Positions 1,526-59,515 of a DNA stretch of 64,000 bases are shown here, piece by piece. Under the pieces are notes generated by a model. The model did not search any database. It worked only from the letters and a program-made list of their open reading frames with translations, and was not told where the DNA came from. Both the position numbers and the translations under genes were made by a program. The DNA comes from Gammaproteobacteria bacterium. GTDB taxonomy: Bacteria; Pseudomonadota; Gammaproteobacteria; Ga0077554; Ga007554. The DNA lies in assembly GCA_016191235.1 (NCBI GenBank), contig JACPOZ010000021.1, positions 4,131 through 68,130 on the forward strand, read 5' to 3'. How positions within the stretch are numbered: the stretch's first letter is position 1; each line of letters starts with the position of its first letter.

Positions 1526-1595
1526 TGTATTCTCCTCATAGATTTATCGAAGGTTAAAAATTCTTTATTAATGATTCACCAGTTGAGCGTATCCG

Positions 1596-3041: not shown

Positions 3042-3177
3042 ATCAATAACTCCGTAGCGTAATCCAGGTCATTCACGCAAAACCGCGCCGTTGAATGCAC
3101 TATCTTTGCTATATGTTCCACATGCCTGTCACAGTGGTTTTTTGTGCATCAACTCTTTGCGGCTCTGCGTGACATTT

Positions 3178-4359: not shown

Positions 4360-4477
4360 GGGTTTACTCCTGGCTGAATTTAAAAGTCATCAGCGAAGGC
4401 TCGCCGCCTTGGCTAATGGCTCTTTAAGTAAAAAAACAGGGCGGGTTAGGCAAAATGCGCCAACCCGCCCGACATTT

Positions 4478-5533
<1,056 letters not shown>

Positions 5534-5578
5534 TTAAAACGGCCAACCCAGGCTGATAATTCTTGATTTCAGAACGCA

Positions 5579-5652
5579 GGGTGCGTCCCACGCACCCGCA
5601 ATAGCGCTCGACGCGGCCAGGGTGCGCCCTTCGGGCCTGCTCAGTGCAGGCC
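5579..5652. repeat. REP-like hairpin cluster in the tkt-gap spacer
   Basis: gggtgcgtcccacgcaccc (7-bp stem ggtgcgt/acgcacc), followed by a second hairpin ggcctgc-tcagt-gcaggcc. The 18-mer gggtgcgtcccacgcacc recurs exactly at 55966-55983. Confidence 0.45.
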
Positions 5653-5677
5653 ACAGCGCATCCTACGCTCTTGATTG

Positions 5678-7672
5678 TCAGAGAACGCCCTGGACAGCCT
5701 TTACGACATTGTCCACGGTGAAACCGAACTCCTTGAATAGGTCACCCGCCGGGGCCGATTCGCCGAAGGTGTCGATGCCGACCACCGCGCCTTCCAGGCC
5801 GACATACTTATGCCAGCACTCGGTCACACCGGCTTCCACGGCTACGCGCACTATACCCTTGGGCAGCACGCTGTCTTTATAGGCCTGGTCCTGACGGTCA
5901 AAGACGTTCGTGGAGGGCATGGACACCACGCGCGCGGCGATGCCTTTTTCCGCCAAAACCTGTTGCGCACCCGTCGCCAGGGCCACTTCAGAGCCGGTGG
6001 CAATCAGCACAACCTTGGGCTTGCCGCCTGCGGCTTCGGAGAGAACATAACCGCCCTTGCTGACGTTGACAATAGTGGCTTCATCACGTTTCTGGAAAGG
6101 CAGATTCTGGCGGCTGAAGATCAGGCTGCTCGGGCCATCCTTGCGCTCAATGGCGCGCGCCCAGGAAACAGCGGACTCCAGTGTATCGCAGGGGCGCCAC
6201 ACATCCATATTGGGGATGAGACGCAGCGTGGCGGTCTGTTCGACGGGCTGGTGGGTCGGGCCGTCTTCGCCCAGACCGATGGAGTCATGGGTGAATACAA
6301 AGATTGAACGAATCTTCATCAACGCCGCCATGCGCAGGGCATTACGCGCATATTCGGAGAACATCAGGAAGGTCGCGCCGTAAGGAATCACGCCACCGTG
6401 CAACGCCATGCCATTCATCATGGCGGACATGCCGAACTCGCGCACGCCATAGTACACGTAATTGCCGCCGTCCTTTTTGGAGACGCCGCGCGAACCGGAC
6501 CACAGCGTCAGGTTGGAGCTGGCCAGATCCGCGGAACCGCCGAGCAGTTCCGGCAGCGCGGGCGCGAGGCCTTCGATGCTGTTTTGCGAGGCCTTGCGTG
6601 TGGCGATGGTCTCGCCTTTGGTGTTGACATTGGCTATGAAAGCATCGACGTGCTCGCTCCAATTCGCAGGCAGCTCGCCGCTCATGCGGCGCGTGAACTC
6701 GGCAGCCTCGGCGGGGTAGCTCGCAGCATATTCGGCAAACTTGTTGCTCCACAGCTTCTCAAGACCTTCACCTTTGGTGCGAGCATCCCAACCCTCGTAA
6801 ACATGCTTGGGGATCTCGAAGGGAGGATAGCTCCAGCCGATGTTGGCACGGGTTGCGGCCACTTCAGCATCGCCCAGCGCGGCGCCGTGGCAATCATGGC
6901 TGCCTGACTTGTTGGGCGAGCCCATGCCGATCACCGTTTTGCAGCAGATCATCGTGGGCTTGTCGGTATTGGCCTTGGCGGCCTCAATCGCGGCCTCAAT
7001 CGCCGCCGTGTTATGACCGTCAACGTTCGGGATCACGTGCCAGCCATAGGCCTCGAAACGCTTGGGGGTGTCATCGGTAAACCAGCCTTCAACGTGGCCG
7101 TCGATGGAAATGCCATTGTCGTCGTAGAAGGCAATCAGCTTGCCCAGGCCCAGTGTGCCGGCCAGCGAACAGGCCTCGTGGGAGATACCCTCCATCAAGC
7201 AACCGTCGCCCAGAAACACATAGGTGTGGTGGTTGACGATTTCATGGCCGGGCTTATTAAACTCGGCAGCCAGCACCTTTTCGGCAATCGCCATGCCGAC
7301 GGCATTGGTGATGCCCTGACCCAACGGGCCAGTCGTGGTCTCGATACCAGGCGCGTAACCGTATTCAGGGTGTCCAGGGGTTTTGGAGTGAAGCTGACGG
7401 AAGCGTTTGATCTCTTCCATTGGCAGGTCATAGCCGGTGAGGTGCAACAGTGCGTACAGCAGCATCGAGCCATGGCCATTCGAAAGCACGAAGCGGTCGC
7501 GGTCAGGCCATTTGGGGTTGGCCGGGTTATGGCGCAGATGGTGGTTCCACAAAACTTCCGCGATTTCCGCCATGCCCATGGGCGCGCCGGGGTGCCCAGA
7601 GTTGGCCTTCTGTACGGCATCCATCGCAAGCGCGCGTATGGCATTGGCTAAATCTTTACGGGAAGCAGACAT
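5678..7672 (-). CDS. tkt: transketolase
   Basis: ORF 5678..7741 trimmed to [15 protein letters not shown] (ATG 7672, AGAGGAA SD). SGHPGAPMG and GDGCLMEG thiamine-diphosphate motifs present. Confidence 0.93.
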
Positions 7673-8076
7673 GCATTTTTCCTCTAACTCTTTAAAATAA
7701 AAACTAAAATAGTAAGTTGACCCGATCTTTTCAGGACCCAAAGAATGTTATTTTCTCTTAGATTGGACTATTCGGCAATAGCGGGCGCCCAAATGCCGTG
7801 GGAAGTGGGGAGTATTACCGCATATTTCCTATCGAGGATGACTATCGGAAAACACGGATTGCTTGCTCAGGAGCCGTAAAAATATCCGCCGCCGCAGCGA
7901 CGGCTGCATGGACGCGAGAGATAAGGCACATTTAACCCGAATGTTTCATAGATTCGCGTGACGGAGGCATGGCAAGGCATAAAAAGTTATTTCTCGAATC
8001 GGTGATTCACCCTTGAGATTGCTTTCATGGCATGAATTACATATATTAATTTATAAATACAATATGGATTACACAT

Positions 8077-8694: not shown

Positions 8695-10077
8695 TCACCC
8701 CGCCGGAAACATTTTGTCCGGGTTAAGTATCCCTTTGGGGTCGAACTGATCCTTGATGCGTTTCATCAATGCCAGGGTGGGCGGGTCAATCTCACGGCTG
8801 ACGAAATCGCGCTTTTCGATGCCTACGCCGTGCTCGCCGGAGAGTGTGCCGTTCAACTTCAGGACGAGGCTGAAGACCTTATCCAGACAGTGTTCGGCAT
8901 TATGCATCTGTACCGGGTCATCGGGATCGACTAGCAGATTGACGTGGATGTTGCCATTACCAGCATGCCCGAAATTGACGATGGTGATGTTGTGCTCACG
9001 CGCCAGCACGTCCAGGCCGTCGATAAGTTCGGCCATGCGCGACACCGGCACCACAACATCCTCATTGATCTTTTTTGGCGCAATAGTGCGCAATGCGGGG
9101 GATAGCGCCTTGCGTGTTGCCCATAAATCGCTGACTTCCTGAGGGGTACGGGCGGCCCATAGATCCAGCAACCCTTCGCCTTGCGCGGCGCGGCTCACTG
9201 CCGCAACCGCGTCATCCATCGCGGCCTGCGAACCATCCACCTCGATCATCAGCAATGCCCCCGCCCCCACTGGCAGATCGGCCTTGGAGTAGCTGCGTAT
9301 CATCTCGATTGCGCGGCCGTCGATGAATTCCAGTGCGCACGGTGTGACGGGCTGCGCCATGATGCGCGATACAGCGGCGGCGGCGGCGCGCATGTCGCTG
9401 TAGACGGCGCGCAGGGTACGCTTGGTCTCCGGCAATGGGGTGAGTTTCAGCGTCGCCTCGGTGATGATCGCCAGTGTGCCCTCGCAGCCGACGATCAGCC
9501 GCGTGAGGTCGTAGCCGACGACGCCCTTGGTGGTATAGACCCCCGTGCGAATCTCCTCGCCCGCACCGGTGACCGCGCGCAAACCCAGGGTATTTTCACG
9601 CGGCGTGCCATATTTGACGGCGCGTGGGCCGGCGGAGTTGTAGGCCAGGTTACCGCCCACCGTACAGAAGGCGGCGCTGGTGGGGTCAGGCGGCCAGAAA
9701 AAACCGTGCGCCCCAGCGGCGTCTTGCACCTGCTGATTGGTAACGCCCGGCTCCACCACCATGACGCGGTTGTCCGGGTCGACGCGCAGTATGCGATCCA
9801 TGCGCTCCAGCGCCAGCACCAGTCCACCGCGCAGCGGCACGGTGGCGCCAGTGGTGCCGGTACCCCGCCCGCGCGGCACCAGCGGCACAGCATGGTGATT
9901 GCACAGCCGCACAATGTCACGCACTTGTTCATGCGTGGTGGCGAAGACCACGGCATCGGGCAGCGCATGGCGCCGGCTGTTGTCGTACCCATACGGCCAG
10001 CAGTCGGCGGCATCGCTCAGCACATTTTCTGCGCCGGCGATGGCGGTGAGCTGCTCCAGGAAGGCGGGCGGTATCAT
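8695..10077 (-). CDS. FAD-linked oxidase (GlcD / D-lactate dehydrogenase family)
   Basis: 460 aa with an FAD-binding PCMH-type segment (VPRGRGTGTTGATVP) and C-terminal GTLSGEHGVGIEKR. No glcE or glcF neighbours. Confidence 0.85.
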   Translation of the reverse strand: MIPPAFLEQLTAIAGAENVLSDAADCWPYGYDNSRRHALPDAVVFATTHEQVRDIVRLCNHHAVPLVPRGRGTGTTGATVPLRGGLVLALERMDRILRVDPDNRVMVVEPGVTNQQVQDAAGAHGFFWPPDPTSAAFCTVGGNLAYNSAGPRAVKYGTPRENTLGLRAVTGAGEEIRTGVYTTKGVVGYDLTRLIVGCEGTLAIITEATLKLTPLPETKRTLRAVYSDMRAAAAAVSRIMAQPVTPCALEFIDGRAIEMIRSYSKADLPVGAGALLMIEVDGSQAAMDDAVAAVSRAAQGEGLLDLWAARTPQEVSDLWATRKALSPALRTIAPKKINEDVVVPVSRMAELIDGLDVLAREHNITIVNFGHAGNGNIHVNLLVDPDDPVQMHNAEHCLDKVFSLVLKLNGTLSGEHGVGIEKRDFVSREIDPPTLALMKRIKDQFDPKGILNPDKMFPAG

Positions 10078-10140
10078 GGTCTTTTAACGCTTACTGGCTT
10101 TGAACCCATATTATTCATTAGGCGAGGAGAGCGCACAACG

Positions 10141-10264
10141 CCGTTCGTGGTGAGCTTGTCGAACCATGAACGGCCCTTCGACAGGCTCAGGGCAAACGGT
10201 TTGGGGGCTAATGGCAATCTGCGTTTAACTTTCTTCCCACCCTCTCCCGCCTTGCGGGAGAGGG
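10141..10264. repeat. REP-like intergenic repeats (two hairpin units)
   Basis: Unit 1 is ccgttcgtgg...ccatgaacgg followed by cccttcgacaggctcagggcaaacgg. It translates as the spurious ...SLSNHERPFDRLRANG peptide, which I recall as a repeat family seen in many proteobacterial genomes (recollection, not checked). Unit 2 is a perfect 11-bp stem, ccctctcccgc-ctt-gcgggagaggg (10240-10264). Confidence 0.5.
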
Positions 10265-10364
10265 GGTAAAAATACACCATTGAATTGGAGATGGAATTGC
10301 CGCTTTGAATCCGGATATTTCATAAATCCGTGATGCGCTGTTATGAAACATCCGGGGTAAATCT

Positions 10365-10946
10365 TCAATCAAGATATTCAAAAATCCTGACCACGCGTTC
10401 CACGCCATCGGTACGGCTGGCAATGTCACTGGCGATATCCGCTTCTTTGCGGGTCACTACGCCCATCAGATAAACAATGCTGCTGTCGGTGACCACCTTG
10501 ATATCATTGGCGCTGATCTCCTTTGCGCCCAGCAGCATGGTTTTGACCTTGGTGGTGATCCAGGAGTCGCGGCTGGCGGTCTGAAATGCGATGGGCTGGC
10601 CGATGGTCATTTCGTTATGCACCCGTTTCACCTTTGTAATGCCTTTGACCTTGTCGGCGGCACGCGTACGGAGATCCTCGGTGGGCGCCTGTCCGGTCAA
10701 CAGCACCACGCCGTTAAAACTGGTGACACTGATGCGCGCCTTGTCCGACAATTCAGAATCGGAGAATATCGCCCGCATCGCCTTGAATTCGATAGACTGG
10801 TCATCCACTACTTCCCCCACCGTGCGGCGGTCGCTGGCTACGGCGGCGCCGGTCGCACCACCCGCAATAATCGCCCCCGCGCAGCCCTGCAACAATGCGG
10901 CCGTGAGAAATCCATTGATCATTAGTAAAGACAGCTTTCTATTCAC
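10365..10946 (-). CDS. dolP: BON-domain outer-membrane lipoprotein (DolP/YraP-like)
   Basis: 193 aa with a lipobox signal peptide ...LLQGCAG and two BON-like halves. Conserved position after lpoA-yraN. Confidence 0.85.
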   Translation of the reverse strand: MNRKLSLLMINGFLTAALLQGCAGAIIAGGATGAAVASDRRTVGEVVDDQSIEFKAMRAIFSDSELSDKARISVTSFNGVVLLTGQAPTEDLRTRAADKVKGITKVKRVHNEMTIGQPIAFQTASRDSWITTKVKTMLLGAKEISANDIKVVTDSSIVYLMGVVTRKEADIASDIASRTDGVERVVRIFEYLD

Positions 10947-10972
10947 GTCAACCTCCTATTTTATTAATGGCA

Positions 10973-11401
10973 TCATGCCCCAAACGCATTTTGTATCCAG
11001 AGCACTTCATCATGCTGCGCGCCGGGCGAAATCGAGATCACATCAAAACGTGCCGGGTGCTTGGCCGCTGCCCTGTGCGATTGCAGATAGTGTAACGCAG
11101 TGGCGGTAAGTTTGGCCTGCTTGCGCCGGTCGATACTCTCTGCGCCGCTGCCAAAGCGCGCACTGCGCCGGTAGCGGACTTCGACAAACACGATGCTGCC
11201 CGCATGGCGCATCACAAGATCAATTTCGCCGCACGGACAATGGTAGTTGCGTTCCACCAGTTGCAAGCCACGTTCCAGCAGGTAGCGGCAGGCCAGGTCT
11301 TCCGCCTCGCCCCCGCGCACCGGCGGCCTTCCGCTTGGCGGGATTTTACTGGTCAAGGCTGCGCGATGATGCGCGGCTCGCCATCCACGAAACGCGCGCA
11401 C
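10973..11401 (-). CDS. yraN: YraN-family (UPF0102) endonuclease-like protein
   Basis: GEAEDLACRYLLERGLQLVERNYHCPCGEIDLVMRH...VFVEVRYR signature. Start is uncertain because the ORF overlaps the lpoA 3' end by 49 nt. Confidence 0.8.
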   Translation of the reverse strand: MRAFRGWRAAHHRAALTSKIPPSGRPPVRGGEAEDLACRYLLERGLQLVERNYHCPCGEIDLVMRHAGSIVFVEVRYRRSARFGSGAESIDRRKQAKLTATALHYLQSHRAAAKHPARFDVISISPGAQHDEVLWIQNAFGA

Positions 11402-12501
11402 ACTAATCCCCGGCGAATACGCTGGCCTTTATCCAGACTCAGATTGCCGGTCTCCCCCGCCATGCGCTCACTGGGGTCTGCACGCATCCGGCTCAGGTAA
11501 GGCAAGAGATTATAGGCGTCCACGCCTAATGCGTAGAGGCGCTTGAACTGTTCCGAGGATTGAGGCCAGCGCAGGGAAATGATGCGCGACAAGGCCTGTT
11601 GGCCCTCCTCCAGCACCCAGGGCATGTCGCAAAACAGCACATCGTTCACGTCGGCATCGGCATTTTTGTCGACACGCCCTGTGTAAACATGCGAGGTGGC
11701 ATAAACCGGCACATCGCCCGCAAAGTTAAAGTTCAACTGGGGGCGGATCTGGCGCGCCTGGCGTGGGGTGGCAACCAGGAACAAGGCATCCACATCCTGA
11801 CGGCGGCGGCGCTCCTTACTGCTGATATTGAAGAGCGTGCGCACAGGGGTTGCAAAATCGCTACCCGCCGGGTCATATGTCTGTTGCGCAACCACACTGC
11901 CGCCTAGCTCCTCAAAGCGTGCTTTAAACGTATTGAACACCCGCGCGCCCCACTCCCCCACGGGGATTAACGCAACCGCTTGGCGGCGGCCATCCTGCCA
12001 TGCGCGCTCAGCCACCGCACGCGCCTCATCCTCGGGCGCCAGGCCGAACTGGAAAAGATTACCGGGGCTGGTGTTTTCGTCCTCCGTATAGTTAAGCGTC
12101 AGCGTGGGCACGGCCAAATCAGCATTGCGGGCCAGCGCCTTCACACCGTCCTTGTCCAGCGGACCAATCACCACATTCGCACCTTCCGCCAATGCCTGCT
12201 GATATGCCGCCAGCACCGCAGCAGGCTGAGCACCTGCGTCATAGAGCCGGATGGTGGGCTGATAAAGCTTGTTCAAACGCTGATAATAGGCCGCGAAAAA
12301 ACCGTCACGCACCGCCGCCGCAGCTTTTGCAAGCGGGCCGCTGGAAGGTAACAGCAGCGCGATATTGGCGGGCGGTTCGGCCAGGCGCGGCTGCTCCGGC
12401 ATTGCGGCAACAACGTTACCTGGATCAATGGCAAAGGCACGCCCCACAAACGACAGCGCTACACCGAGCAGCAGGGATGATATGTATTTGGCTGGTAGCA
12501 T
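11353..12501 (-). CDS. lpoA: penicillin-binding protein activator LpoA (LppC family)
   Basis: ORF 11353..12561 trimmed to MLPAKYISSLLLGVALSFVGRAFA (signal peptide). An alternative ATG lies at 12519. Periplasmic-binding-like body; divergent from rsmI as in E. coli. Confidence 0.78.
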   Translation of the reverse strand: MLPAKYISSLLLGVALSFVGRAFAIDPGNVVAAMPEQPRLAEPPANIALLLPSSGPLAKAAAAVRDGFFAAYYQRLNKLYQPTIRLYDAGAQPAAVLAAYQQALAEGANVVIGPLDKDGVKALARNADLAVPTLTLNYTEDENTSPGNLFQFGLAPEDEARAVAERAWQDGRRQAVALIPVGEWGARVFNTFKARFEELGGSVVAQQTYDPAGSDFATPVRTLFNISSKERRRRQDVDALFLVATPRQARQIRPQLNFNFAGDVPVYATSHVYTGRVDKNADADVNDVLFCDMPWVLEEGQQALSRIISLRWPQSSEQFKRLYALGVDAYNLLPYLSRMRADPSERMAGETGNLSLDKGQRIRRGLVCARFVDGEPRIIAQP

Positions 12502-26737: not shown

Positions 26738-27324
26738 TGGGCTTAGGGGCGGCTAAAGACAGCAATGGATGAGTTGCGCGGGATACTGGAGGAGCCGGGG
26801 GATGAGGTTGAAAGGTGAAGCGCGAAGAAGAAATACTCGCGCCACTGTTACGAGCTTTGAATTGGAGCCACAGCCTGCTGATTCTAAATCCTCCGCCGCC
26901 TCGAAGCCCGCTGCGCCAGCACCCAGGGAGAAAAACTCACCCGAGGCCACCCTCGCCAAAGACTTCCGTGGCGAGGTGGTACCATAAGACTCAAATGATG
27001 AACCGACCAGTATGTTGCTTGAGCGCATTTGCACCAAGCATAATGACCAATCCATAAGCACATCCAGGCGGGAGCGACAAAGCCCGCAAACTAAAGACAA
27101 AGATAGCCAGGGAGACCCCATGCTCACCAAACTGCACCTGAAGAGGCATCTATCTTCGGCATGAAGACGAAGTCTGGCTGATTGCACGTGCCAAGTTGGT
27201 TCATCCCGATTTCGTACAGAATATTGGCAAGCATTGGCGTTCGCGTGCTCTGCGTTGGAACACGCTGGATGCCGACAGGAGTCGGACACCATTAGCCTGT
27301 CATCGGAAATGAACGGCCAAAACA

Positions 27325-29076
27325 ATGCTCAATAACCTAATCTCCCGTGCTACTCTCGAAGACCTCGCCGGTAGCACCGCTTTCCAGCGCGGCGAGGAAT
27401 ATTTTTCCGTCGGCGCCGTCGAGCGTCTTCGTGCGACAGATGGCAAGATCACCGCCCGGGTCGAAGGCACGGAAACCTACCAGGTCGAGTTGCGGGATGA
27501 CGATGGCGATCTGGCCTACGATTGCACCTGCCCGCGTGCCGCCGACGGTTATTTCTGCAAGCACTGCGTGGCGGTTGGGCTGGCGTGGATGGCCGAAAAT
27601 TCCGCCACACCGAAATCTGGCGCCGCATCCAGCAAAAAGAAACGGCGCGATCCGTGGCGTGACATCAAGGGGTATCTGACAGCGCAGCCACCGGAAGCCT
27701 TGGTCGAACTGTTGCTGGACGTGGCACAGCGCGACGATAGGCTCTACCAGTCGTTATTACTCAAGACTGAACGTAGCGGCAGAGGCGGGAACGTGGCCAA
27801 GGCATACCAAAGGGCGATCGACGATGCGACGCGCATTCACCGCTTTGTCGACTGGCGGGAGGTTGGCACCTTCGCCGGTATTATCGACCAGGTGGCGGAT
27901 TCACTGGCGGAATTGCTCAAGCCCGGCACGGCCGCCATGCTGGTCGAGCTGGCCGAGTACGCCATCGAGCGAATCGAGAATGCGCTGGAGCAGGTTGACG
28001 ACTCGAACGGCGAGATTGGCGATATTGTCTATCGCTTGGGCGAGTTGCATCTCAAGGCTTGCACGATGGCGCAGCCGGAACCAGCGGGGCTGGCCGAGCG
28101 TCTGTTCCGGTTCGAGACGACGCTACCGTTCGGCCTGTGCAGCTTCGATGCCACCACCTATCGCGATGCCCTCGGTTTGGCCGGCCTGCGCCGCTATCGA
28201 GAGCTGGCGGAAGCCGAGTGGCGCAAGCTCAAGCCACGGGATGTGAAGGACAGCTACGATACTCACCGGGCAACGATCACCCGCATCATGGAGCGGCTGG
28301 CCGAGGCGAGCGGCGACGTCGAGGAACTGGTGGCTATCAAGTCGCAGGATCTTTCCTCGGGTTACCGCTATCTCGACATCGCCGAAATCTGGACCAAGGC
28401 CAAGCAGTCGGACAAAGCGCTGGAATGGGCGGAACGCGGCCTGAAGGCTTTTCCCGAGCGGCCCGACAACCGGCTCCGGGACTTTCTGGTGGCGGCGTAC
28501 CTTGCGCGCAAACGCAATGACGAGGCATTGCAACTCACCTGGATTCAGTTCGAGGAGCGCTCGAGTCTTGAACACTACAAGAAGCTGCACGATGTTGCCG
28601 ACAAGCTCGGCCTCTGGCCGGAGCAGCGCGACCGGGCACTCGCGAGGGTCGCTGAGGTCATCGCACGCGAAGCGAACACAACGAGTCGCTGGAAACCGAA
28701 GCCGTCAACGCCAAATTATTCGCTACGGGTGGAAATTGCCCTGTGGGAGCAGGATTTTGATGCGGCCTGGACAGCCGCACATGAAGGCGCCTGTGATCGC
28801 GGCCTACTCGTCACGTTGGCCGGGAAACTCGAAGTTCCGCGTCCTGGTGATGCCATGAGCCTCTACCGCCGCGTAGTGCCGCTCATCGTCGAACAGACCA
28901 ACAATGCCGCCTATGATGAGGCGATCAAGCTGATTCGCAAGGTGGGCGAGTTGATGAAAGCGCAGAATCAGTCCCGGCAATTTGGCGACTATCTGGCAGA
29001 GTTGCGTGTGCAGTTCAAGCCGAAGCGGAATTTCATCAAGTTGCTGGATGGGGTGGCACGGAGTGCTGTGAAATGA
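27325..29076 (+). CDS. SWIM zinc-finger domain protein with a long helical C-terminal region
   Basis: 583 aa. A CxC-x(n)-CxH SWIM signature (YDCTCPRAADGYFCKHCVAV) sits near residue 65. The remainder is helical-repeat-like. No partner genes on either side. Confidence 0.8.
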   Translation: MLNNLISRATLEDLAGSTAFQRGEEYFSVGAVERLRATDGKITARVEGTETYQVELRDDDGDLAYDCTCPRAADGYFCKHCVAVGLAWMAENSATPKSGAASSKKKRRDPWRDIKGYLTAQPPEALVELLLDVAQRDDRLYQSLLLKTERSGRGGNVAKAYQRAIDDATRIHRFVDWREVGTFAGIIDQVADSLAELLKPGTAAMLVELAEYAIERIENALEQVDDSNGEIGDIVYRLGELHLKACTMAQPEPAGLAERLFRFETTLPFGLCSFDATTYRDALGLAGLRRYRELAEAEWRKLKPRDVKDSYDTHRATITRIMERLAEASGDVEELVAIKSQDLSSGYRYLDIAEIWTKAKQSDKALEWAERGLKAFPERPDNRLRDFLVAAYLARKRNDEALQLTWIQFEERSSLEHYKKLHDVADKLGLWPEQRDRALARVAEVIAREANTTSRWKPKPSTPNYSLRVEIALWEQDFDAAWTAAHEGACDRGLLVTLAGKLEVPRPGDAMSLYRRVVPLIVEQTNNAAYDEAIKLIRKVGELMKAQNQSRQFGDYLAELRVQFKPKRNFIKLLDGVARSAVK

Positions 29077-29201
29077 GTGCCGAGGCGTCCATTTGAACCT
29101 CCACTGTTTATTATCCATGCGCAAGATAATAATGCAAAATAAACAAAAATGTTATTAATAAACAATATGATATGTTTCGCGTTATTATCTTGGCGAAAAA
29201 A

Positions 29202-29326
29202 ACCCGCCCTCAAACCTCATAATCAACCAGACGCCGCTCCGAGCGCACCGCCATCACAAATTCCTTGACCTCTTCATGCAATGGATGGCTCTGATATACA
29301 TCCAGTGCCGCCCTGCTCTCGAACTC
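29202..29326. repeat. 125-bp direct repeat, left copy
   Basis: Identical to 31178-31302 except 29276 A versus 31252 G. Confidence 0.95.
29210..29326 (-). pseudogene. orphan 3' fragment of the Dabb-domain gene (last 38 codons plus stop)
   Basis: Lies within the left repeat copy and encodes ...EFESRAALDVYQSHPLHEEVKEFVMAVRSERRLVDYEV*. No upstream coding continuation. Confidence 0.75.
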
Positions 29327-29341
29327 AGGATTCAGCAATGA

Positions 29342-31003
29342 CTATTCGGGAAGCGGGAACAACTGCTTTGACCTGCGCCACCACAACCCCATCAATGCGA
29401 GCAATGCCAGCGGCTCAAACGCACCGCCGCCTCCAGAAGAGGGGGGTGAAGATGACGGCGTAGATGGCGCGGCCTCGGCAACAGACCTGATGCCTTGCCC
29501 ACTCAGCGCTAAAGGTTGATAACCGGCAGCGGAGTCACTGAACACCATCACTTCTCCGGTATAAGAATATTCGCCAGCGGATGAATACGTTACCGCAAAC
29601 TGGCACTGGCCGCCCGCCTCGATGGTATTACCGGAACAGGTATCATTTTTGATACCAAAATCACCCGTGGTGCCACTCTCCCCGGCAACCAAAAGGACCG
29701 CATCGATCTTCAGGGGCAACGCACCAGCATTTGATAACGTAACCACATGCTCCTTACTTTGTCCAACAGGGACACTGAAAGTGAGTGGCCCGGTGTCCAA
29801 CTTGATCGCCGATGTCAGCGTGGGACCAGTGATTTTTTTAAGTTCCTCGGAGTCTGAGCTAAATTTTCGCGCGAGCTGAAGCGTTGCGGTATCTATGACG
29901 TAAACATTGCTGTAGCTCGCACATCCCGGTTGAACTGTAGCACTGGAGGTTACGCGGAGTCTGGGCTGGTAGAATTGTATTTCCAGGCCCTGCGGCAGGC
30001 CAGACATTGGAATGCTGATATACGAAACTGCCGTGGACGATAAATCCACGGAAGCCAACAGAGTAGCGTTGCTACTGGTGTCGCCGATCGTCGCATAGAG
30101 ATTCTTGCCTTCCGCATCAATAACCATGTCACCGGCAACACGATTCTCCCCCACAAAACTTGTTACCAGTGTAACCACTTTTGTTGCCACATTCATCGCC
30201 ACAAGCTTTCCTGAAGTCTGGCTTAGAATATAAAGACGGGAGCCATCGGGATGAGCAACAAGACGGTTCGGGATATCGCTGAGAATTATGGTATCAACTA
30301 CCGTGCGGGTAACCGTATCTATCACATAAACCGCGTTCTCGCCCTCGCTGGCCACAAACAATTTTCTGCCATCAGGGCTTAAAGCCATCGAGGAAGGCTT
30401 GCTGCCCACAACAATGGTCACAACAACCACATGCTCTGGCGCCTTGATGATGGAAACAGTCCCATCGTCGTAATTTGACACGTAAACGTACCGTCCGTTG
30501 GGACTGATGGCCATAGCGCGCGGCGCGGCACCGACATTCACGATGGTGCTGGCTGTGCTCGCGGAGGCAACAGAAGTACTTGCAAGGTCAACAACCGATA
30601 CTGTTTTATCTGTGGGATTAAGCGCGTAAGAAAACGGCCCTCGCTTAATTTCCTGGACTCCGCCAGAGGAAAAAGAAACGGTTTGAAATACATAATCTGA
30701 GGGGGGTGTACATACGATGCTGGAAAAAGTATCTGGGAGTGGCACCGTTATCTGTCTTTGGGTAAACCCTACATCTACCGCTGCAATAGGGTTCGATATT
30801 GTGAACGGATCAGATGCTGCCCCACTTGCAATATGCCAGGAATCAAACACAGAAGTTGGACGCCCGGAAACCGGAACGACCTGCTGCCCAACCTCTATGA
30901 CTTTTATGTCTTCCGGCGGCGACGCCACGCCTGCAGAAATCAAACCAACCACTGATGAAAGTCCCAAACAAAACCCTGCAAGGCGGGCATACCTGGATCG
31001 CAT
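29342..31003 (-). CDS. secreted YVTN-type beta-propeller protein with a choice-of-anchor-D-like domain and GlyGly-CTERM-like tail (paralog 1)
   Basis: ORF 29342..31069 trimmed to the signal peptide MRSRYARLAGFCLGLSSVVGLISAGVA. Repeated blades (YVYVSNYDDGTVSIIK, LFVASEGENAVYVIDT, LYILSQTSGKLVAMNV). Cys-pair Ig-like domain (DTCSGNTIEAGGQCQFAVTY). C-terminus SSGGGGAFEPLALLALMGLWWRRSKQ. Confidence 0.8.
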   Translation of the reverse strand: MRSRYARLAGFCLGLSSVVGLISAGVASPPEDIKVIEVGQQVVPVSGRPTSVFDSWHIASGAASDPFTISNPIAAVDVGFTQRQITVPLPDTFSSIVCTPPSDYVFQTVSFSSGGVQEIKRGPFSYALNPTDKTVSVVDLASTSVASASTASTIVNVGAAPRAMAISPNGRYVYVSNYDDGTVSIIKAPEHVVVVTIVVGSKPSSMALSPDGRKLFVASEGENAVYVIDTVTRTVVDTIILSDIPNRLVAHPDGSRLYILSQTSGKLVAMNVATKVVTLVTSFVGENRVAGDMVIDAEGKNLYATIGDTSSNATLLASVDLSSTAVSYISIPMSGLPQGLEIQFYQPRLRVTSSATVQPGCASYSNVYVIDTATLQLARKFSSDSEELKKITGPTLTSAIKLDTGPLTFSVPVGQSKEHVVTLSNAGALPLKIDAVLLVAGESGTTGDFGIKNDTCSGNTIEAGGQCQFAVTYSSAGEYSYTGEVMVFSDSAAGYQPLALSGQGIRSVAEAAPSTPSSSPPSSGGGGAFEPLALLALMGLWWRRSKQLFPLPE

Positions 31004-31177
31004 ATCTTTTATTCTCCGCCGAAAAGGAAATTTATCGCTTCTATCTGACCATTTCTCCTTTTGAACCACGCTACTTCCCTAAGGCTTGGGTGAGCATAGC
31101 AAAGCGAAAACCAGCCGGTCAATCGAATACGCAGAGGCTAAGCTGCGCAAATCAGATACTAGAGCCTCCCATCAGAC

Positions 31178-31302
31178 ACCCGCCCTCAAACCTCATAATC
31201 AACCAGACGCCGCTCCGAGCGCACCGCCATCACAAATTCCTTGACCTCTTCGTGCAATGGATGGCTCTGATATACATCCAGTGCCGCCCTGCTCTCGAAC
31301 TC
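31178..31302. repeat. 125-bp direct repeat, right copy (inside the intact Dabb gene)
   Basis: See 29202-29326. Confidence 0.95.
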
Positions 31303-31488
31303 GGAATAGAGCGCGACATCGGATGACGCATCTTCCCTGCTGAAATCTATTCCAACCTCAAGGCGCAACATACCGGGGATCTGGCCGTTAAGCGCCTCCA
31401 AACGCCGCTTCACTTCGAGGGCATTCTCCGCCGCGCTACGACCATTGGCGGTTTCTTTCAACTTCCACAGCACGATATGTTTAATCAC
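31186..31488 (-). CDS. stress-responsive Dabb (dimeric alpha/beta barrel) domain protein
   Basis: ORF trimmed to the GTG at 31488 (IKHIVLWKLKE...). GTGA overlap with the alr stop. The longer 138-aa form would overlap alr by more than 100 nt. Confidence 0.8.
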   Translation of the reverse strand: MIKHIVLWKLKETANGRSAAENALEVKRRLEALNGQIPGMLRLEVGIDFSREDASSDVALYSEFESRAALDVYQSHPLHEEVKEFVMAVRSERRLVDYEV

Positions 31489-33967: not shown

Positions 33968-34238
33968 TTAGAGCCTGTCTGTGAATAAATCATCCCTGCG
34001 ACGGAGGCCGGTTTTGAGCAGGGCAAGGAACGCTGAGCGTAGTGTGCTTGTTGCACATAAGCGAAGCGTGACGCCGCACTGCTCAAAACCGGCCCCGTCC
34101 CTCCGGGTTGCGCCCCAAAACACGCCATGCGGCGTTGCTCGCCGCTCATTTGGTACAACCAAACTTCGCACCTCGCGTCTTGCCTGGCGTGTTTTGGGAC
34201 AGCAACGCAGGGATGATTTATTCACAGACAGGCTCTAA
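33968..34238. repeat. 271-bp nested palindromic (MITE-like) element
   Basis: Perfect 33-bp terminal inverted repeats (TIRs), ttagagcctgtctgtgaataaatcatccctgcg (33968-34000) against 34206-34238. Two internal hairpin units: ccggttttgagca...tgctcaaaaccgg and ccaaaacacgcca...tggcgtgttttgg. It generates mirror-image 85-aa ORFs on both strands. Confidence 0.7.
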
Positions 34239-36973: not shown

Positions 36974-37018
36974 CCCTAAATAAAAAAGCCCGGCATTGCC
37001 GGGCTTTTTTATTTAGGG
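36974..37018. terminator. bidirectional rho-independent terminator (45-bp perfect palindrome)
   Basis: ccctaaataaaaaagcccggca-t-tgccgggcttttttatttaggg. A GC stem (gcccggc/gccgggc) is flanked by A6 and T6. It lies between the convergent micro-ORF and the 910-aa gene. Confidence 0.8.
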
Positions 37019-37032
37019 TTTCTCAAAATCCG

Positions 37033-39765
37033 CTAATTTTGAACTGGCAACAAAGAGTGGGGCTTTTTTTGCGCCTGTCCCAGGCCAAGATCATAAATGT
37101 CACGATCCAGGGGGCTGAGTGCCTTGAGACGGGCGCGATAAAACGACGCCATCTTACCATCGCCGGCATCCCTCTCCATGCGCCATAAGGCCCGCAAGGC
37201 CTCGACATGGTCTGGACGCACCTGCAAAATAGCCTGCAAGGCCTGCCGTTTGTTCATGCCGCGATCCAGCGCCTGTGGCAATGTCGCCAGCATCTTGTCG
37301 GCCAGGTCAAAACCAATCCAGCGATCACGGGGATTGGCCTCAAAGGCGAGGCGCATCAGACGCTGCGCCTCGCCCGTATTATCACCACGCAGCGCAGCCA
37401 CCCAGCTTCTCGCCGCCAAAAAAGAGGCCACATAGCTGCGCTCGAATTCCTGCGCATTATTGGCCGGCACATTCATGGCGAGCGCTGCCTGCGCCAAGCC
37501 TGGCCGCTGCTCCAGCAGCTTGGACAATAATACATCGAGATTAAATGCATCGCGGTAACGTGCGCGCGGCAAACGGTATTCGATCTGCGGCGCCCATTCA
37601 TCCTGCACCGGACCCACGCCTGGCGGAATCGGTCCCCAGTAGCGGCCCAACCATGTCCATGCACCCTCCCCGCCCGTCGCGGCGGATTGCCCGGCTTGCG
37701 CAAGACGGCCCAAATTTGCCAGCAATGCGGGCGCGCCCTGCACAACGTCCTTCGGACCTACCAATGCGACGCGGAAACCATCCATAAAAATTACCGCACC
37801 GGGGAAAACCTTCCGAAAGCTGCGGAAAATTATACCCAATGATCCGGCATCGAATTGATTCAGGGCCAGCCACTGCACAAACAACCCATTTTCCGTCAAC
37901 CTGTCACGGGCGCGCTGAAATTGCTGCACTGACAACAAGGCACTATGCCCCACCAGATCGGGATGAAACAAATCGCCAATAATGACATCGTAATGCCCCG
38001 TATCCCGGCGCAAAAAGCGTCGCGCGTCATCTCGCGTCACAGCCAGCTTGCCCATCACATCCTGATTCACCGGCGCAAACCACTGCGCCGCTGCCGTAAT
38101 AGCCCCCTGCGAAAGCTCCACTGCCTTGCGCGACAATTGCGGGTACGGCAGCGATCCCGCCGCAGATATCCCCGTACCCAAGCCAAGAAACAGCACCGAG
38201 TGCGGCGCGGGGTGCAGCATCAGTGGCAAACGGGCCTGATTTTGCTGCGCCTCGACAGCAGCGGGATCGGAAGATGCGTCCATGCGCTGCAAATCGGCCA
38301 GCAACAAACGCTGACCGTCGACCCGTTCCACAACGTGGGTAATTGAGATGGCATCTTCATGCACATAAATATCCTGACTACCCGCCTGGGTCACAGGCAG
38401 CAGCACATTCACTGCGGGCAGCTCATACACCCTGCCCACCCCCGCCAGACCCATTACACCGAGCATAGTCAGCCAGGGCCAGCGGCTATCCGCCCACACC
38501 ATGCCGCACGCGAATAACAAAACTGCCGCCAGACACAAAGTACCCATGGTTCCCAGCCAGGGTATGAGCACAAATCCCGCCAGCACTGCACCCAACGCCG
38601 CACCCAACGAATTGACGCCATACAGCCACGATCCAGTGCTATGCTGATCTCCCAGTCGGCTATTGAGCAACGGCAACCACGCACCGAGCGCCAGCGTCAC
38701 CGGCAAGGTCAGCGCGGCCACAGCCAGCCCCTGCCACCACAATGCGCCCGCGAGGGATGAAAAATGCGCCTTTTCGACCCACGCCGCCAACTGCGGTACC
38801 AGCCCCAGGCCCAGCAGGCTAAAACTGCCCGCCAGCAACGGCAACACAGCAAACCAGCGCGCGCCGCGCATGTGCCGCGCCGCCAAGCTGCCCAGACCAA
38901 TACCCACCAGGAACACTGCCAGCAGCACTGCCAGCACATATTCGGTACGCAACAGGATCATGCCGAACAGGCGCGTCCAACCCACCTGCAGCATCAATGC
39001 CGCCGCACCCACGCCGGCATAGGCGGCGAGCGATACGAATGATAACCGCGCAGCGCCTTCCCTTGGGCTTTCCTTCGCAGCCGCAGCGTTCGCCAGCGGC
39101 GTAAAGGACAACAAAAACGCCGCCATGCCCACGCACAACCCAATCCCGGCAACCACCCGCACAGCGCTCGACCATCCCAGCCATGGCAACAGCAGCAAGG
39201 GCAATAACGCCCCCGCCGCGCCACCCACGGCATTGAAGCCATAGATCTTGCCTAATGAGACACTGGGTGATGCGGCTCCGCCTGCAAGCACCCTAAGCAC
39301 CAAAGGGAATCCCGCCCCCATTGCCAGCGCGGGGACAAACAACAATACCAATGCGGCCAGGGATTGCAACGCATACCATACCGTAAGCTCCGCCTGCGCG
39401 GCATACGCACCCAGCCAGCCATCCAGCACCTGCTGCATCCATGGCATACACAGGGCATAGAGAGCGACCCCAACCTCCAGCGCGGCAAAAGCCACCAGCG
39501 GCGCCCGCGCGTTGCGCGCAAACCTTACTCCCAGCAAACTGCCCAGGCCAAGGCCAGCCATGAAGGTGGCGACCGTCACCACCACACCGAAAATGCTGAC
39601 CCCGAATTGCAGGCCCAACATGCGTGCCCACAAAACCTCATAGGCGAGGCTGGTCAGGCCGGAGATAAAATACAGCAGGATCAGTACCCAGACCCAACGG
39701 TGGGGGGCATTGCCTTGCGGAGAGGAATCGCTCAAGTCAGATTTGAGCGCCTGATCAACTTGCAT
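37033..39765 (-). CDS. fused polytopic membrane (MFS-like) / spermidine-synthase-like / TPR protein
   Basis: 910 aa. About 14 N-terminal TM helices, a central SAM-fold aminopropyltransferase-like segment (VLFLGLGTGISAAGSL...YDVIIGDLFHPDL) and a C-terminal TPR-like region. Confidence 0.78.
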   Translation of the reverse strand: MQVDQALKSDLSDSSPQGNAPHRWVWVLILLYFISGLTSLAYEVLWARMLGLQFGVSIFGVVVTVATFMAGLGLGSLLGVRFARNARAPLVAFAALEVGVALYALCMPWMQQVLDGWLGAYAAQAELTVWYALQSLAALVLLFVPALAMGAGFPLVLRVLAGGAASPSVSLGKIYGFNAVGGAAGALLPLLLLPWLGWSSAVRVVAGIGLCVGMAAFLLSFTPLANAAAAKESPREGAARLSFVSLAAYAGVGAAALMLQVGWTRLFGMILLRTEYVLAVLLAVFLVGIGLGSLAARHMRGARWFAVLPLLAGSFSLLGLGLVPQLAAWVEKAHFSSLAGALWWQGLAVAALTLPVTLALGAWLPLLNSRLGDQHSTGSWLYGVNSLGAALGAVLAGFVLIPWLGTMGTLCLAAVLLFACGMVWADSRWPWLTMLGVMGLAGVGRVYELPAVNVLLPVTQAGSQDIYVHEDAISITHVVERVDGQRLLLADLQRMDASSDPAAVEAQQNQARLPLMLHPAPHSVLFLGLGTGISAAGSLPYPQLSRKAVELSQGAITAAAQWFAPVNQDVMGKLAVTRDDARRFLRRDTGHYDVIIGDLFHPDLVGHSALLSVQQFQRARDRLTENGLFVQWLALNQFDAGSLGIIFRSFRKVFPGAVIFMDGFRVALVGPKDVVQGAPALLANLGRLAQAGQSAATGGEGAWTWLGRYWGPIPPGVGPVQDEWAPQIEYRLPRARYRDAFNLDVLLSKLLEQRPGLAQAALAMNVPANNAQEFERSYVASFLAARSWVAALRGDNTGEAQRLMRLAFEANPRDRWIGFDLADKMLATLPQALDRGMNKRQALQAILQVRPDHVEALRALWRMERDAGDGKMASFYRARLKALSPLDRDIYDLGLGQAQKKPHSLLPVQN

Positions 39766-57453: not shown

Positions 57454-57467
57454 GCTTTTATCCTGTT

Positions 57468-57519
57468 ACGAAAATAATGTGGTGGAAAGTATAGCAATTT
57501 TCCGGGGCAGGAATCCGCC
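57468..57519. repeat. about 52-bp direct repeat, left copy (argH-proximal)
   Basis: acgaaaataatgtggtggaaagtatagcaattttccggggcaggaatccgcc matches 59464-59515 at 44/52 positions. Perfect cores are ataatgtggtggaaag, caattttccggg and ggaatccgcc. Confidence 0.85.
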
Positions 57520-57638
57520 ACATTTTTCTCGCGCAGATTCGGCGGATCAGGAATTCACAGCAGGTTCAAAATTACCATTTTCAAAGTGGCGTGGCATCAG
57601 GAGAAGATGATATCCGCGAGGCGCACCTCGCTTTTTGT

Positions 57639-59342
57639 CTATAGCCGCTGCCGCCCCCTACGCACCAAGGCCCACAACACCGCAAACATCAGGCTGATCG
57701 GCCCCCAGCTTCCTCCGCCGCCGCCACTATTGCCACTAGCGCTTGATGGCAACGCCTCCTCTGCTCCTGATACACCCCGCGCTGTCACAGCGACCGGCGC
57801 AGAAAGCAGGGTGGAATCACTGTCGATATGCACCAGGGCGCCAGACTGGCCCGTGCTGACCGGGGCATAGCTCAAGGTAATCGCGCATTGACCATCAGGC
57901 TGCAGGGTCTTATTCGTGCAGGTGTCCTCGGCGACTGCAAAGCCGGAGGAATTGGTGGCAGTGGCCACAGGGATATTCGCTGGCGTACTGGAAACCTCGA
58001 TCCGCACGCCGCTCACTGTGAGTGGCAAACTTCCCGTATTGGTGATGGTGAGGGTGCGTGCAGCAGGCTGGCCGCTGGGAACCTCGCCAAAATCCAGTTG
58101 TTTTGCGCTGGGAGTGATGATCGACGCCAGCTCAGGGCTACTGACCAAGGGGCCAAGTCCCATCACCGCGAGCCGGTTCAGTAATTGACCGTTTTTATCC
58201 AGCACTTCGAGATGGTTCGTCTGCTTGTTCATGCCGAACAACCAGCCTGCTTTAGTCACAACAATATCCGCTGCAACGCCTTTGACGTCCAGGGTACTAG
58301 TCAGCTTCAAGTCAGTGGTATCGACGATATAAACCTTGCCAAATATTTCCGCGCAACTCGGTGCTTGCGGCAGCTCGGTGGTGACGAACAATTGCTGTGC
58401 CGCAGGGTTTACAGCCAACGCTTGGGGCAGGCCCTCAAAACTGATCTCAGGAAACGAAATCTCATTTGTTGCGGTATCCAATACCGCCAATGATGTCGTG
58501 GTGAGATGGCCGAGGGTGATGTACAGCCGCTCGCCGGATGCGTCCAACGCGATATCCTCAGGCGCGCCTTGCTCGATCAATGCGTGGCTTTTCACGACAT
58601 CGCCCGAGGCAACATCAATGACATATACTTTGCCACTGACATGACTCAGGCTATACAGCCGCGTGCCGTCCAGGTGGATAGCGAGACGGTCGGAAACATC
58701 GGCGAGAGCAATCGTCTTGATTGCGCTCCGCGCGGCGGTATCAATCACGATGATGGATTTGCCACCCTCAACCACTGCATAGAGCCGGGTTCCATCGCGG
58801 CTCACAAGCAAACTGGCAGGCTTAGCCTCCAAAGTGACCTCGCCGATCCTGTGACGATCATGGGCACGGATGATGACGATCTTTCCGTCGCCCGTGCCGA
58901 CATAGATATAGCCGCCGCTCGGACTGATGGCTATGCCTTGAGGAATCTGACCAGCATCGAGTGAAAGGGGTTCGGCCTTGACCGCACCCAGATCGGAATA
59001 ATCCACCACAGAGACGGTGTTGTTATCGCGGTTGGTGAAGTAGGCATATGGCCCGCGTTTGGTCGTGCTCGAAGTAACAACTGCGGCGGACATACGAACA
59101 GCGTTCACTGAGCTATCGGCCATCATGGTTTGAATAAGGGGCGTACCATCGGCGCGGGGGGGCCGCGGAAGGAAGTAATCTCCTGTTATAGTCGTTTCAC
59201 ACGCCCCTCCTCCCGGGCAGGGAGCCACAGGAGTTACGGAGCAAGAATCGCCAAATTTCCAGCCATCGAAATCGATTGGCGATGCGGCAAAGACGTTTGA
59301 AGCAACGGCAAGCAGCAACCCTGCAAATAATGCGCGTGACAT
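57639..59342 (-). CDS. secreted YVTN-type beta-propeller protein with a choice-of-anchor-D-like domain and GlyGly-CTERM-like tail (paralog 2)
   Basis: 567 aa with signal peptide MSRALFAGLLLAVASNVFA. Blades collinear with paralog 1 (YIYVGTGDGKIVIIRA, LYAVVEGGKSIIVIDT, LYSLSHVSGKVYVIDV). Cys-pair domain DTCTNKTLQPDGQCAITLSY. C-terminus SGNSGGGGGSWGPISLMFAVLWALVRRGRQRL. Confidence 0.8.
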   Translation of the reverse strand: MSRALFAGLLLAVASNVFAASPIDFDGWKFGDSCSVTPVAPCPGGGACETTITGDYFLPRPPRADGTPLIQTMMADSSVNAVRMSAAVVTSSTTKRGPYAYFTNRDNNTVSVVDYSDLGAVKAEPLSLDAGQIPQGIAISPSGGYIYVGTGDGKIVIIRAHDRHRIGEVTLEAKPASLLVSRDGTRLYAVVEGGKSIIVIDTAARSAIKTIALADVSDRLAIHLDGTRLYSLSHVSGKVYVIDVASGDVVKSHALIEQGAPEDIALDASGERLYITLGHLTTTSLAVLDTATNEISFPEISFEGLPQALAVNPAAQQLFVTTELPQAPSCAEIFGKVYIVDTTDLKLTSTLDVKGVAADIVVTKAGWLFGMNKQTNHLEVLDKNGQLLNRLAVMGLGPLVSSPELASIITPSAKQLDFGEVPSGQPAARTLTITNTGSLPLTVSGVRIEVSSTPANIPVATATNSSGFAVAEDTCTNKTLQPDGQCAITLSYAPVSTGQSGALVHIDSDSTLLSAPVAVTARGVSGAEEALPSSASGNSGGGGGSWGPISLMFAVLWALVRRGRQRL

Positions 59343-59463
59343 TATCCATCTCCAGGAATTTTTTTGTTATGCCCCAGCTCGAGTTAAAACGACCACCAAG
59401 GCTCAAACCTTAATGTAGCGCGGCAAAGTAGCGACTGTCTATCGCGAGATTTTGCTGCGCCTT

Positions 59464-59515
59464 ATGAAGATAATGTGGTGGAAAGCAGAACAATTTTCCG
59501 GGTATGGAATCCGCC
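59464..59515. repeat. about 52-bp direct repeat, right copy (algZ-proximal)
   Basis: See 57468-57519. Confidence 0.85.

Follow-up and report, generated by a model that had tools for sequence, protein, structure and literature searches.

A single-gene insertion between direct 125-bp copies of the Dabb gene 3′ end in a gammaproteobacterial genome, with a similar arrangement upstream of argH

A propeller gene lies between two copies of the Dabb gene end

The window analysed here is a 64,000-nt stretch (positions 4,131 to 68,130) of contig JACPOZ010000021.1, a 78,831-bp contig with HYX62 locus tags from a short-read metagenome-assembled genome of a gammaproteobacterium (GCA_016191235.1). Its subject is one beta-propeller gene, propeller paralogue 1, which lies in a 1,851-bp segment (insert 1) behind the Dabb-domain gene and is bracketed by two direct copies of the 3′ end of that gene. 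On the minus strand, the gene order is dnaB (33965-32574), alr (32573-31485), Dabb (31488-31186, with a GTG start that overlaps the alr stop as GTGA) and the propeller open reading frame (ORF; 31069-29342), followed by the orphan Dabb end, a T-run, a palindrome (29195-29106) and the convergent SWIM/DUF6880 gene (27325-29076). The features of the locus are as follows.

31186..31488, minus strand: Dabb gene (stress-responsive A/B barrel), 100 aa; Pfam PF07876, E = 5e-23; orthologues in relatives L001-L005 at 81-95%
31178..31302, minus strand: repeat copy R, the gene copy (38 Dabb codons, stop, 8 nt); from the repeat search and comparison with relatives
29327..31177, minus strand: insert 1, the 1,851-bp unique segment absent from relatives; from empty sites and unitig L082
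31093..31122, minus strand: putative sigma-70-like promoter, TTGACC-N18-TATGCT with a TG extension, inside the insert; hexamers conserved in the L081 homologue
29342..31069, minus strand: propeller paralogue 1 ORF, YVTN beta-propeller with choice-of-anchor-D/Ig-like region; NCBI start at 31003
29202..29326, minus strand: repeat copy R′, orphan Dabb 3′ fragment, 124/125 identical to R
29106..29195, no strand: AT-rich imperfect palindrome of ~90 nt; DNA fold -12.1 kcal/mol, z -2.3
27325..29076, plus strand: convergent SWIM/DUF6880 gene, downstream flank of the target; PADLOC candidate defence gene PDC-S62

The direct repeats at 29202-29326 and 31178-31302 are identical at 124 of 125 positions, with a start-to-start spacing of 1976. 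The repeat search of the window returned one family here (29202-29336 / 31178-31312, spacing 1976), the last 10 nt of which match at only 5 of 10 positions, placing them outside the true repeat, and exact k-mer chaining gave identical blocks at 29202-29275 (74 nt) and 29277-29326 (50 nt). The sole mismatch, A at 29276 against G at 31252, yields CAT in the orphan and CAC in the gene copy, both encoding His. An earlier note on this DNA had described the repeats with this length, identity and single synonymous difference, and the two methods agree with it.

The right copy, R, holds the final 38 Dabb codons, the stop (31186-31188) and 8 nt; the Pfam match and the retained 100-aa reading frame bear out the view that this is the authentic gene end and that the host gene was left intact. 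The segment between the repeats contains a single ORF, again as had been proposed, with its stop 15 nt from the left repeat; the spacer between the Dabb stop and the propeller ORF is 116 nt long, 108 nt of which lie inside the insert. The repeat pair is far beyond chance; only two direct-repeat families of at least 40 nt are present in the 64-kb window, the second of which brackets propeller paralogue 2 (see below). The NCBI accessions of the SWIM protein (MBI2778939.1) and the propeller (MBI2778941.1) differ by two, so the depositors’ annotation may call a coding sequence within 29077-29341, possibly the orphan Dabb fragment.

Empty sites in relatives and the age of the duplication

A one-genome-per-species scan with the Dabb protein identified five close relatives (L001-L005, 81-95% amino acid identity). 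In L001, the site is empty and colinear, running from the Dabb 3′ end through the T-run and the palindrome to SWIM, with 92.7% aligned identity between L001 10184-12204 and window 29326-27306. L003 is likewise empty, with Dabb followed by the T-run and directly by SWIM, the palindrome lying on the other side of SWIM; a further genome, L176 (514-kb contig), shows Dabb, the T-run, a palindrome split by an insertion sequence (IS), and SWIM. None of L001, L003 and L176 carries a propeller gene at this site, and each has a single copy of the repeat, as expected from the single-gene insertion that the earlier note had read from the sequence; an older local tandem duplication, which the note had named as the finding that would speak against it, was not seen in the relatives. 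Other genes lie downstream of Dabb in L002, L004 and L005. The alr gene of L002 (4059-5249) encodes 396 aa against 362 aa, owing to an internal Gly/Ala-rich insertion.

Over the 125 nt, R and R′ differ at 1 position and the window differs from the relatives at 6-25, which means that the event is recent, or else that the copies were recently homogenised. Four substitutions are common to both window copies and absent from L001-L004, so the duplicated DNA is this lineage’s own. At the single position that distinguishes the copies, R keeps the CAC of L001-L004 and R′ holds the derived CAT. The entry point coincides with the start of the T-run, 6-9 nt from the AT-rich palindrome, which begins 6 nt (as the ~90-nt unit) or 9 nt (as the 29122-29192 palindrome) beyond R′; since it occupies the same place in the empty sites of L001 and L176, the palindrome was a pre-existing part of the target. 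Taken together, the 1,851-bp promoter-plus-ORF segment very probably entered 8 nt past the Dabb stop after the divergence of this lineage from its nearest sequenced relatives, and the 125 bp of recipient sequence that preceded the entry point are found today on either side of the insert, with Dabb intact. The insertion with target duplication is real and unusual.

An older event of the same form upstream of argH

The second repeat of the window, at 57466-57519 / 59462-59515, is 54 nt long, 85% identical between copies and brackets propeller paralogue 2, which is 31% identical to paralogue 1 and lies between a histidine-kinase gene and argH. This recurrence of the same signature was not in the earlier note. 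The corresponding features are as follows.

57466..57519, minus strand: copy A, argH-proximal, 12 nt upstream of the argH start; 1 difference from the empty-site sequence
57520..59461, minus strand: insert 2, 1,942 bp, with propeller paralogue 2 (57639-59342, 567 aa); from relatives’ empty sites
59462..59515, minus strand: copy B, the distal 54-bp duplicate; 7 differences from the empty-site sequence

In L083-L086 the kinase gene and argH are neighbours, and each genome has one 54-nt stretch that matches both window copies; that of L083 (5935-5988), for instance, can be aligned to window 59515-59462 as well as to 57519-57466. The filled sites L087 and L088 hold the insert, both copies and the same 5′ junction; in L087, similarity between the copies reaches ~70-100 nt. 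Relative to the empty-site sequence, the argH-proximal copy is conserved (1-4 differences) and the distal copy is decaying (7-12 differences). By these sequence counts, the argH event is older than the Dabb event, with the region upstream of argH kept intact. Positional orthologues of paralogue 2 (window 57639-59342 against L087 4096-5811) share 71% protein identity and the adjacent argH 97%, an indication of very fast divergence or allele replacement of these putative surface proteins.

Repeat-flanked variable segments often reflect deletion (PMC2884548), and an ancestral propeller with its repeats may have been lost from the relatives by recombination between the repeats. Such loss may well explain the patchy distribution of insert 2. 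At the Dabb locus, the orphan fragment itself requires a duplication, the copies are 1/125 apart against 6-25/125 for the relatives, and all three genomes with the same flanks (L001, L003, L176) are without the gene, so that for insert 1 we regard ancestral presence followed by loss as very improbable.

Junctions in raw reads and the status of the assembly

Logan unitig L082 (1,911 bp, run SRR12113392) corresponds to window 29297-31207 with zero mismatches and consists of the insert with 30 nt (k-1) of repeat sequence on either side. Because it covers both insert ends, both novel junctions exist in raw reads, and the insert has a single context in this run, as the unitig would otherwise have stopped at the insert’s own ends. 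With k = 31, the graph cannot distinguish a contiguous flank-repeat-insert-repeat-flank arrangement (A-R-I-R-B) from an empty chromosome (A-R-B) plus a repeat-insert (R-I) circle.

This ambiguity, the short-read metagenomic source and the variation of the region between strains leave room for an artefact in which an empty-site chromosome was assembled together with a small circle or tandem array, or in which strains were mixed. However, the junctions are real in the reads, a 2-kb circle without a replication gene is unlikely to persist, the contig holds different alleles in the two repeat copies, and the argH event, seen with this architecture in two lineages that were assembled independently, has copies too diverged to be collapsed repeats. 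An assembly artefact is accordingly among the least credible of the explanations considered.

The SWIM gene, the palindrome and a variable neighbourhood

A third arrangement of similar form surrounds the SWIM gene, whose protein matches PADLOC candidate PDC-S62 at 7e-69. In L001, SWIM lies between same-orientation copies of the palindrome element (10318-10417 / 12233-12332, 81-85% identical, spacing 1915), and it is likewise bracketed in L176 (7867-7972 / 9782-11219); the repeats in these two genomes measure 87-100 nt. The window keeps the copy downstream of SWIM only, and L003 the upstream copy only. No SWIM-empty site was found among the relatives, which makes this third case less secure. 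The three repeat spacings are 1976 bp for propeller 1, 1996 bp for propeller 2 and 1915 bp for SWIM/PDC-S62. In a scan of ~210 kb of related loci plus the 64-kb window, direct repeats of at least 35 nt spaced 0.3-10 kb apart were restricted to these cases and one small paralogous gene pair.

SWIM homologues 80-90% identical occur in several betaproteobacterial bins (Sulfuricella, Gallionella, Nitrosomonadaceae and Sterolibacterium), whereas argH is at most 78% identical to that of named taxa, so the SWIM gene moves horizontally. In two other taxa, it lies among toxin-antitoxin and restriction genes without palindrome or repeats. The palindrome was considered as part of a SWIM cassette mobile across taxa and rejected in that role, as homology to the Gallionella and wood-metagenome sequences is confined to the ORF and the palindrome is absent there. 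It was found only beside SWIM and is neither an attC site nor a canonical terminator.

The spacer between uvrA and SWIM also varies: the window has 570 nt of unrelated sequence (26738-27306), L081 a propeller homologue (1264-3332), and L176 a 7-kb island with restriction-modification and toxin genes (747-7750). In all comparisons, homology between genomes ends ~18 nt before the SWIM start. Between SWIM and Dabb, L176 carries an IS4-like element within the palindrome (9830-11150; DDE_Tnp_1 and DUF4372 transposase), which has inverted ends of 19 nt (CAGAAGTGTCCGGCAATTT) and made a duplication of 9 bp (TAAACATGT); the SWIM-Dabb spacer has therefore been hit repeatedly.

Cargo of insert 1 and its possible source

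NCBI annotates propeller 1 from an ATG at 31003 as a 553-aa protein (MBI2778941.1). Searches for exact protein matches returned none for Dabb or for the 575-aa propeller ORF; the 553-aa form is the one on record. The protein contains YVTN repeats (TIGR02276, 3e-21) and a choice-of-anchor-D / Ig-like region (NF012200), begins with a signal-peptide-like segment and ends in a GlyGly-CTERM-like tail, GGGGAFEPLALLALMGLWWRR, composed of a Gly-rich stretch, a hydrophobic helix and RR. This tail is a likely sorting signal, and the product a probable secreted surface protein. The hexamers at 31093-31122 suggest a promoter function, and the insert reaches ~55 nt upstream of the -35 box. A retro-copy derived from mRNA was ruled out, because the conserved -35/-10 elements and these ~55 nt lie inside the insert.

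The closest homologue of propeller 1 is P0002 on L081 (64% amino acid and 72.6% nucleotide identity, same promoter hexamers), which sits without a flanking repeat between SWIM and uvrA, that is, on the other side of SWIM. A metagenome scan with the family alignment returned mostly generic YVTN propellers and one locus of the same architecture, L090. Insert 1 has a GC content of 0.515 and a third-position GC content (GC3) of 0.52, against GC3 values of 0.70-0.81 in neighbouring genes; the L081 homologue has a GC3 of 0.51 in an equally GC-rich genome. Low GC3 is thus a family trait, and composition alone is no proof of recent import.

These observations bear on a relocation within the genome, in which an ancestral copy between SWIM and uvrA, as in L081, was template-switched ~2.5 kb into the Dabb 3′ end and the original was lost. 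The position and promoter of the only close homologue agree with such a move, as does the low GC3 shared by the two genes; in view of the fast evolution of propellers in this clade (71% between paralogue 2 orthologues against 97% for argH), propeller 1 might be a relocated resident instead of a foreign gene. Against this, the window’s uvrA-SWIM spacer contains no propeller remnant, loss of the original copy demands a second event, and 64% identity is below that of the known orthologue pair. We therefore consider relocation rather improbable.

Mobility functions at the locus

Pfam searches of 30-odd large ORFs in the window, together with argH-hemC genes named by synteny, detected no transposase, integrase or other recombinase domain near the insert and no integron integrase; all of the genes so tested or named are housekeeping genes except the propellers and SWIM. 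Insert 1 has no terminal inverted repeats (its first 80 nt against the reverse complement of its last 80 nt score 7, with a shuffled mean of 6.9-7.6), and there is no tRNA attachment site at the insert. The earlier note’s statement that the locus shows no transposase, integrase, short terminal inverted repeats or tRNA attachment site thus holds for the ORFs tested and the insert ends. No end motif is common to inserts 1 and 2, the terminal 20-32 nt of the inserts have no copy or local source elsewhere in the window, and an Rfam search returned nothing relevant. Plasmid and phage collections contained no related DNA, full-length protein or vector. Insert 1 is not multicopy, with one copy in the window and one context among the SRR12113392 unitigs. 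An integron cassette with an attC site was ruled out, since neither the palindrome nor the insert ends contain R″/R′ boxes (RYYYAAC ... GTTRRRY).

A recombinase acting in trans could nevertheless have been responsible, either an integrase working on a non-autonomous element with a Dabb-3′ attachment site or a wide-stagger transposase like those of IS1549 and IS1634. Elements that integrate at gene 3′ ends regenerate the gene and leave an orphan fragment, as e14 does in icd. That one lineage has three duplications, of 54 to ~125 nt, suggests machinery common to them, and an active IS4-like element is present in the same spacer of L176. The target duplications of IS1549 and IS1634 provide a precedent, being 8-514 bp long and variable between insertions (PMC2266710). 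The IS of L176, however, produces an ordinary 9-bp duplication, and the lack of a recombinase gene, of terminal inverted repeats and conserved ends, and of further insert contexts in the sample all argue against an enzyme of this kind. No common attachment sequence exists either: R, the 54-bp argH repeat (R2) and the palindrome element are mutually unrelated, which makes a single site-specific enzyme unlikely. An in-trans recombinase is a distinctly improbable source of the insertions.

Origin of the duplication

As origin we favour a single illegitimate event without an element-encoded recombinase, in which the duplication was copied from recipient DNA; this account is plausible, though we hold it tentatively and stop short of calling it probable. 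It could have taken one of two forms. In the first, the target strands would have opened at points separated by 125 nt; ligation of the segment between the ends and filling of the overhangs would then have given, in effect, a very long target-site duplication. In the second, of the fork stalling and template switching / microhomology-mediated break-induced replication (FoSTeS/MMBIR) type, the nascent strand would have left its template at the T-run or palindrome, switched to another DNA molecule to copy the segment, and returned to its first template 125 nt behind the point of departure. The same process probably lies behind the older 54-bp duplication around propeller paralogue 2 and may underlie the ~100-nt repeats around SWIM in the relatives. 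Afterwards, the repeat-flanked cassette could have been lost, or shared among conspecifics, by ordinary RecA recombination. As the entry point already lay past the Dabb stop, the duplication was not needed to keep Dabb intact, which points to a by-product of the mechanism rather than a selected feature.

The earlier note had offered two mechanisms, Campbell-type integration and a staggered break with fill-in, and we lean towards the fill-in / template-switch class. In a Campbell-type event, a circle carrying the propeller gene and a 125-bp copy of the Dabb 3′ end would have integrated by one RecA crossover to give R-insert-R′. Campbell insertion-duplication has an identical product topology: a single crossover predicts exactly an intact gene, an orphan fragment and near-identical repeats, and 125 bp at 99% identity suffice for RecA. 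The de Bruijn unitig is equally compatible with an R-I circle and with the integrated form, repeat-flanked cassettes can pop out as such circles, and the patchy occurrence of insert 2 among equally distant relatives fits gain and loss by homologous recombination. In nature, however, the process needs a circle that joins foreign DNA to 54-125 bp of recipient sequence. The circle must hold the lineage’s own R, with its four shared substitutions, and have both novel joints pre-formed; at 54 bp, R2 is about as short as efficient RecA recombination allows, and the insert retains no replication or vector sequence. Because the recipient’s own 54-125 bp must already have been joined to the cassette, a Campbell-type event explains spread and loss better than origin, and as the origin it is unlikely, if somewhat better placed than relocation. 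A one-step, target-duplicating insertion is favoured over it, and its recurrence involves unrelated targets and differing duplication lengths (54, ~100 and 125 nt).

Several points weigh against the one-step insertion. The sequence is a short-read metagenome-assembled contig, and read-level confirmation of the insertion is still needed; gene conversion between the R copies could mimic a recent origin. Junction microhomology is the hallmark of template switching, and no donor was found in which to look for it: the nearest homologue, at 72.6%, diverges before the insert ends. Two nicks 125 nt apart do not separate unaided. We know of no bacterial precedent for target duplications of this length without a transposase, and literature searches returned no account of long target duplications lacking one. 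The same gene family is the cargo in two of the three cases, a hint that the process is more specific than illegitimate recombination at random. The family sites L081, L170/L171 and L173/L174, and likewise L090, have no flanking repeats, showing that such repeats are not a property of the gene family as such. Finally, TTCC|G occurs at the A-side boundary of both the Dabb and the argH events, a weak coincidence that could reflect chance or a nuclease preference.

A broader proposal would be that this lineage has an undescribed insertion route for promoter-plus-ORF cassettes of ~1.8-1.9 kb, which needs nothing encoded by the cassette, duplicates 50-125 bp of arbitrary target and has acted at least three times. 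We regard this proposal as rather doubtful.

Comparison with known systems

Among known elements, those nearest in duplication size are IS1549 and IS1634, whose duplications likewise run from tens to hundreds of bp and vary in length. The trait of DDE insertion sequences that is present here is the target duplication itself (125 bp and 54 bp, each single-copy in empty sites). These elements have a DDE transposase, terminal inverted repeats and many copies, whereas insert 1 consists of cargo only in a single context. The earlier note’s assertion that the duplication is far longer than classical transposition produces therefore needs qualification: the lengths fall within the range of IS1549 and IS1634 (8-514 bp), and what stands as undescribed is such a duplication around a cargo-only segment that lacks both a transposase and terminal repeats.

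Integrase-borne islands and prophages (e14 in icd and those targeting tRNA genes) and their integrase-less derivatives, the cis-mobilizable elements (CIMEs), resemble insert 1 in their intact target, orphan 3′ fragment and long repeats. They differ from the present case, in which no integrase was found and both repeats are of recipient type, instead of one being of element type; moreover, the sequences duplicated in the second and third cases, a promoter region and a palindrome, are unrelated. FoSTeS/MMBIR shares with the present case an insertion and a flanking duplication of arbitrary length from one event, and a start beside a hairpin-forming palindrome and a T-run; it is known mainly from eukaryotes and from amplification in E. 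coli, and the template here would be foreign or distant DNA.

Minimal mobile elements, or genomic islets, were first described in Neisseria as single genes swapped between conserved flanks. Like insert 1, they are single cargo genes without mobility functions in variable slots between conserved genes, and the uvrA-SWIM-Dabb region is islet-like in that its content changes from relative to relative: a propeller, a restriction-modification island, an IS or nothing. Unlike insert 1, islets exchange through flanking homology without target duplication.

Mobile elements, or exchange of flanking DNA by homologous recombination, are credited with most gene gain in bacteria, and the entry of single “naked” genes into new chromosomal sites is poorly documented. 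For two events, filled and empty sites are available here at base resolution, and a third looks alike. If a common mechanism were involved, it would be a new acquisition route for surface-protein and defence genes; if the events were sporadic and illegitimate, they would still be of value as clear-cut, naturally occurring cases of long target duplication. In addition, they illustrate a way for inserted DNA to leave intact the host gene or promoter at its landing site. Recurrence in the same genome adds to the interest of the case, while the metagenomic contig, the lack of a donor and the repeat-less family sites count against it.

Other inverted repeats in the window

Two further structures were observed elsewhere in the window. 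A 45-nt near-perfect palindrome (36974-37018) lies just downstream of a 910-aa ORF (37033-39765), and a perfect 33-nt inverted repeat (33968-34000 / 34206-34238) surrounds ~200 nt between dnaB and rplI, with mirror-image ORFs on both strands.

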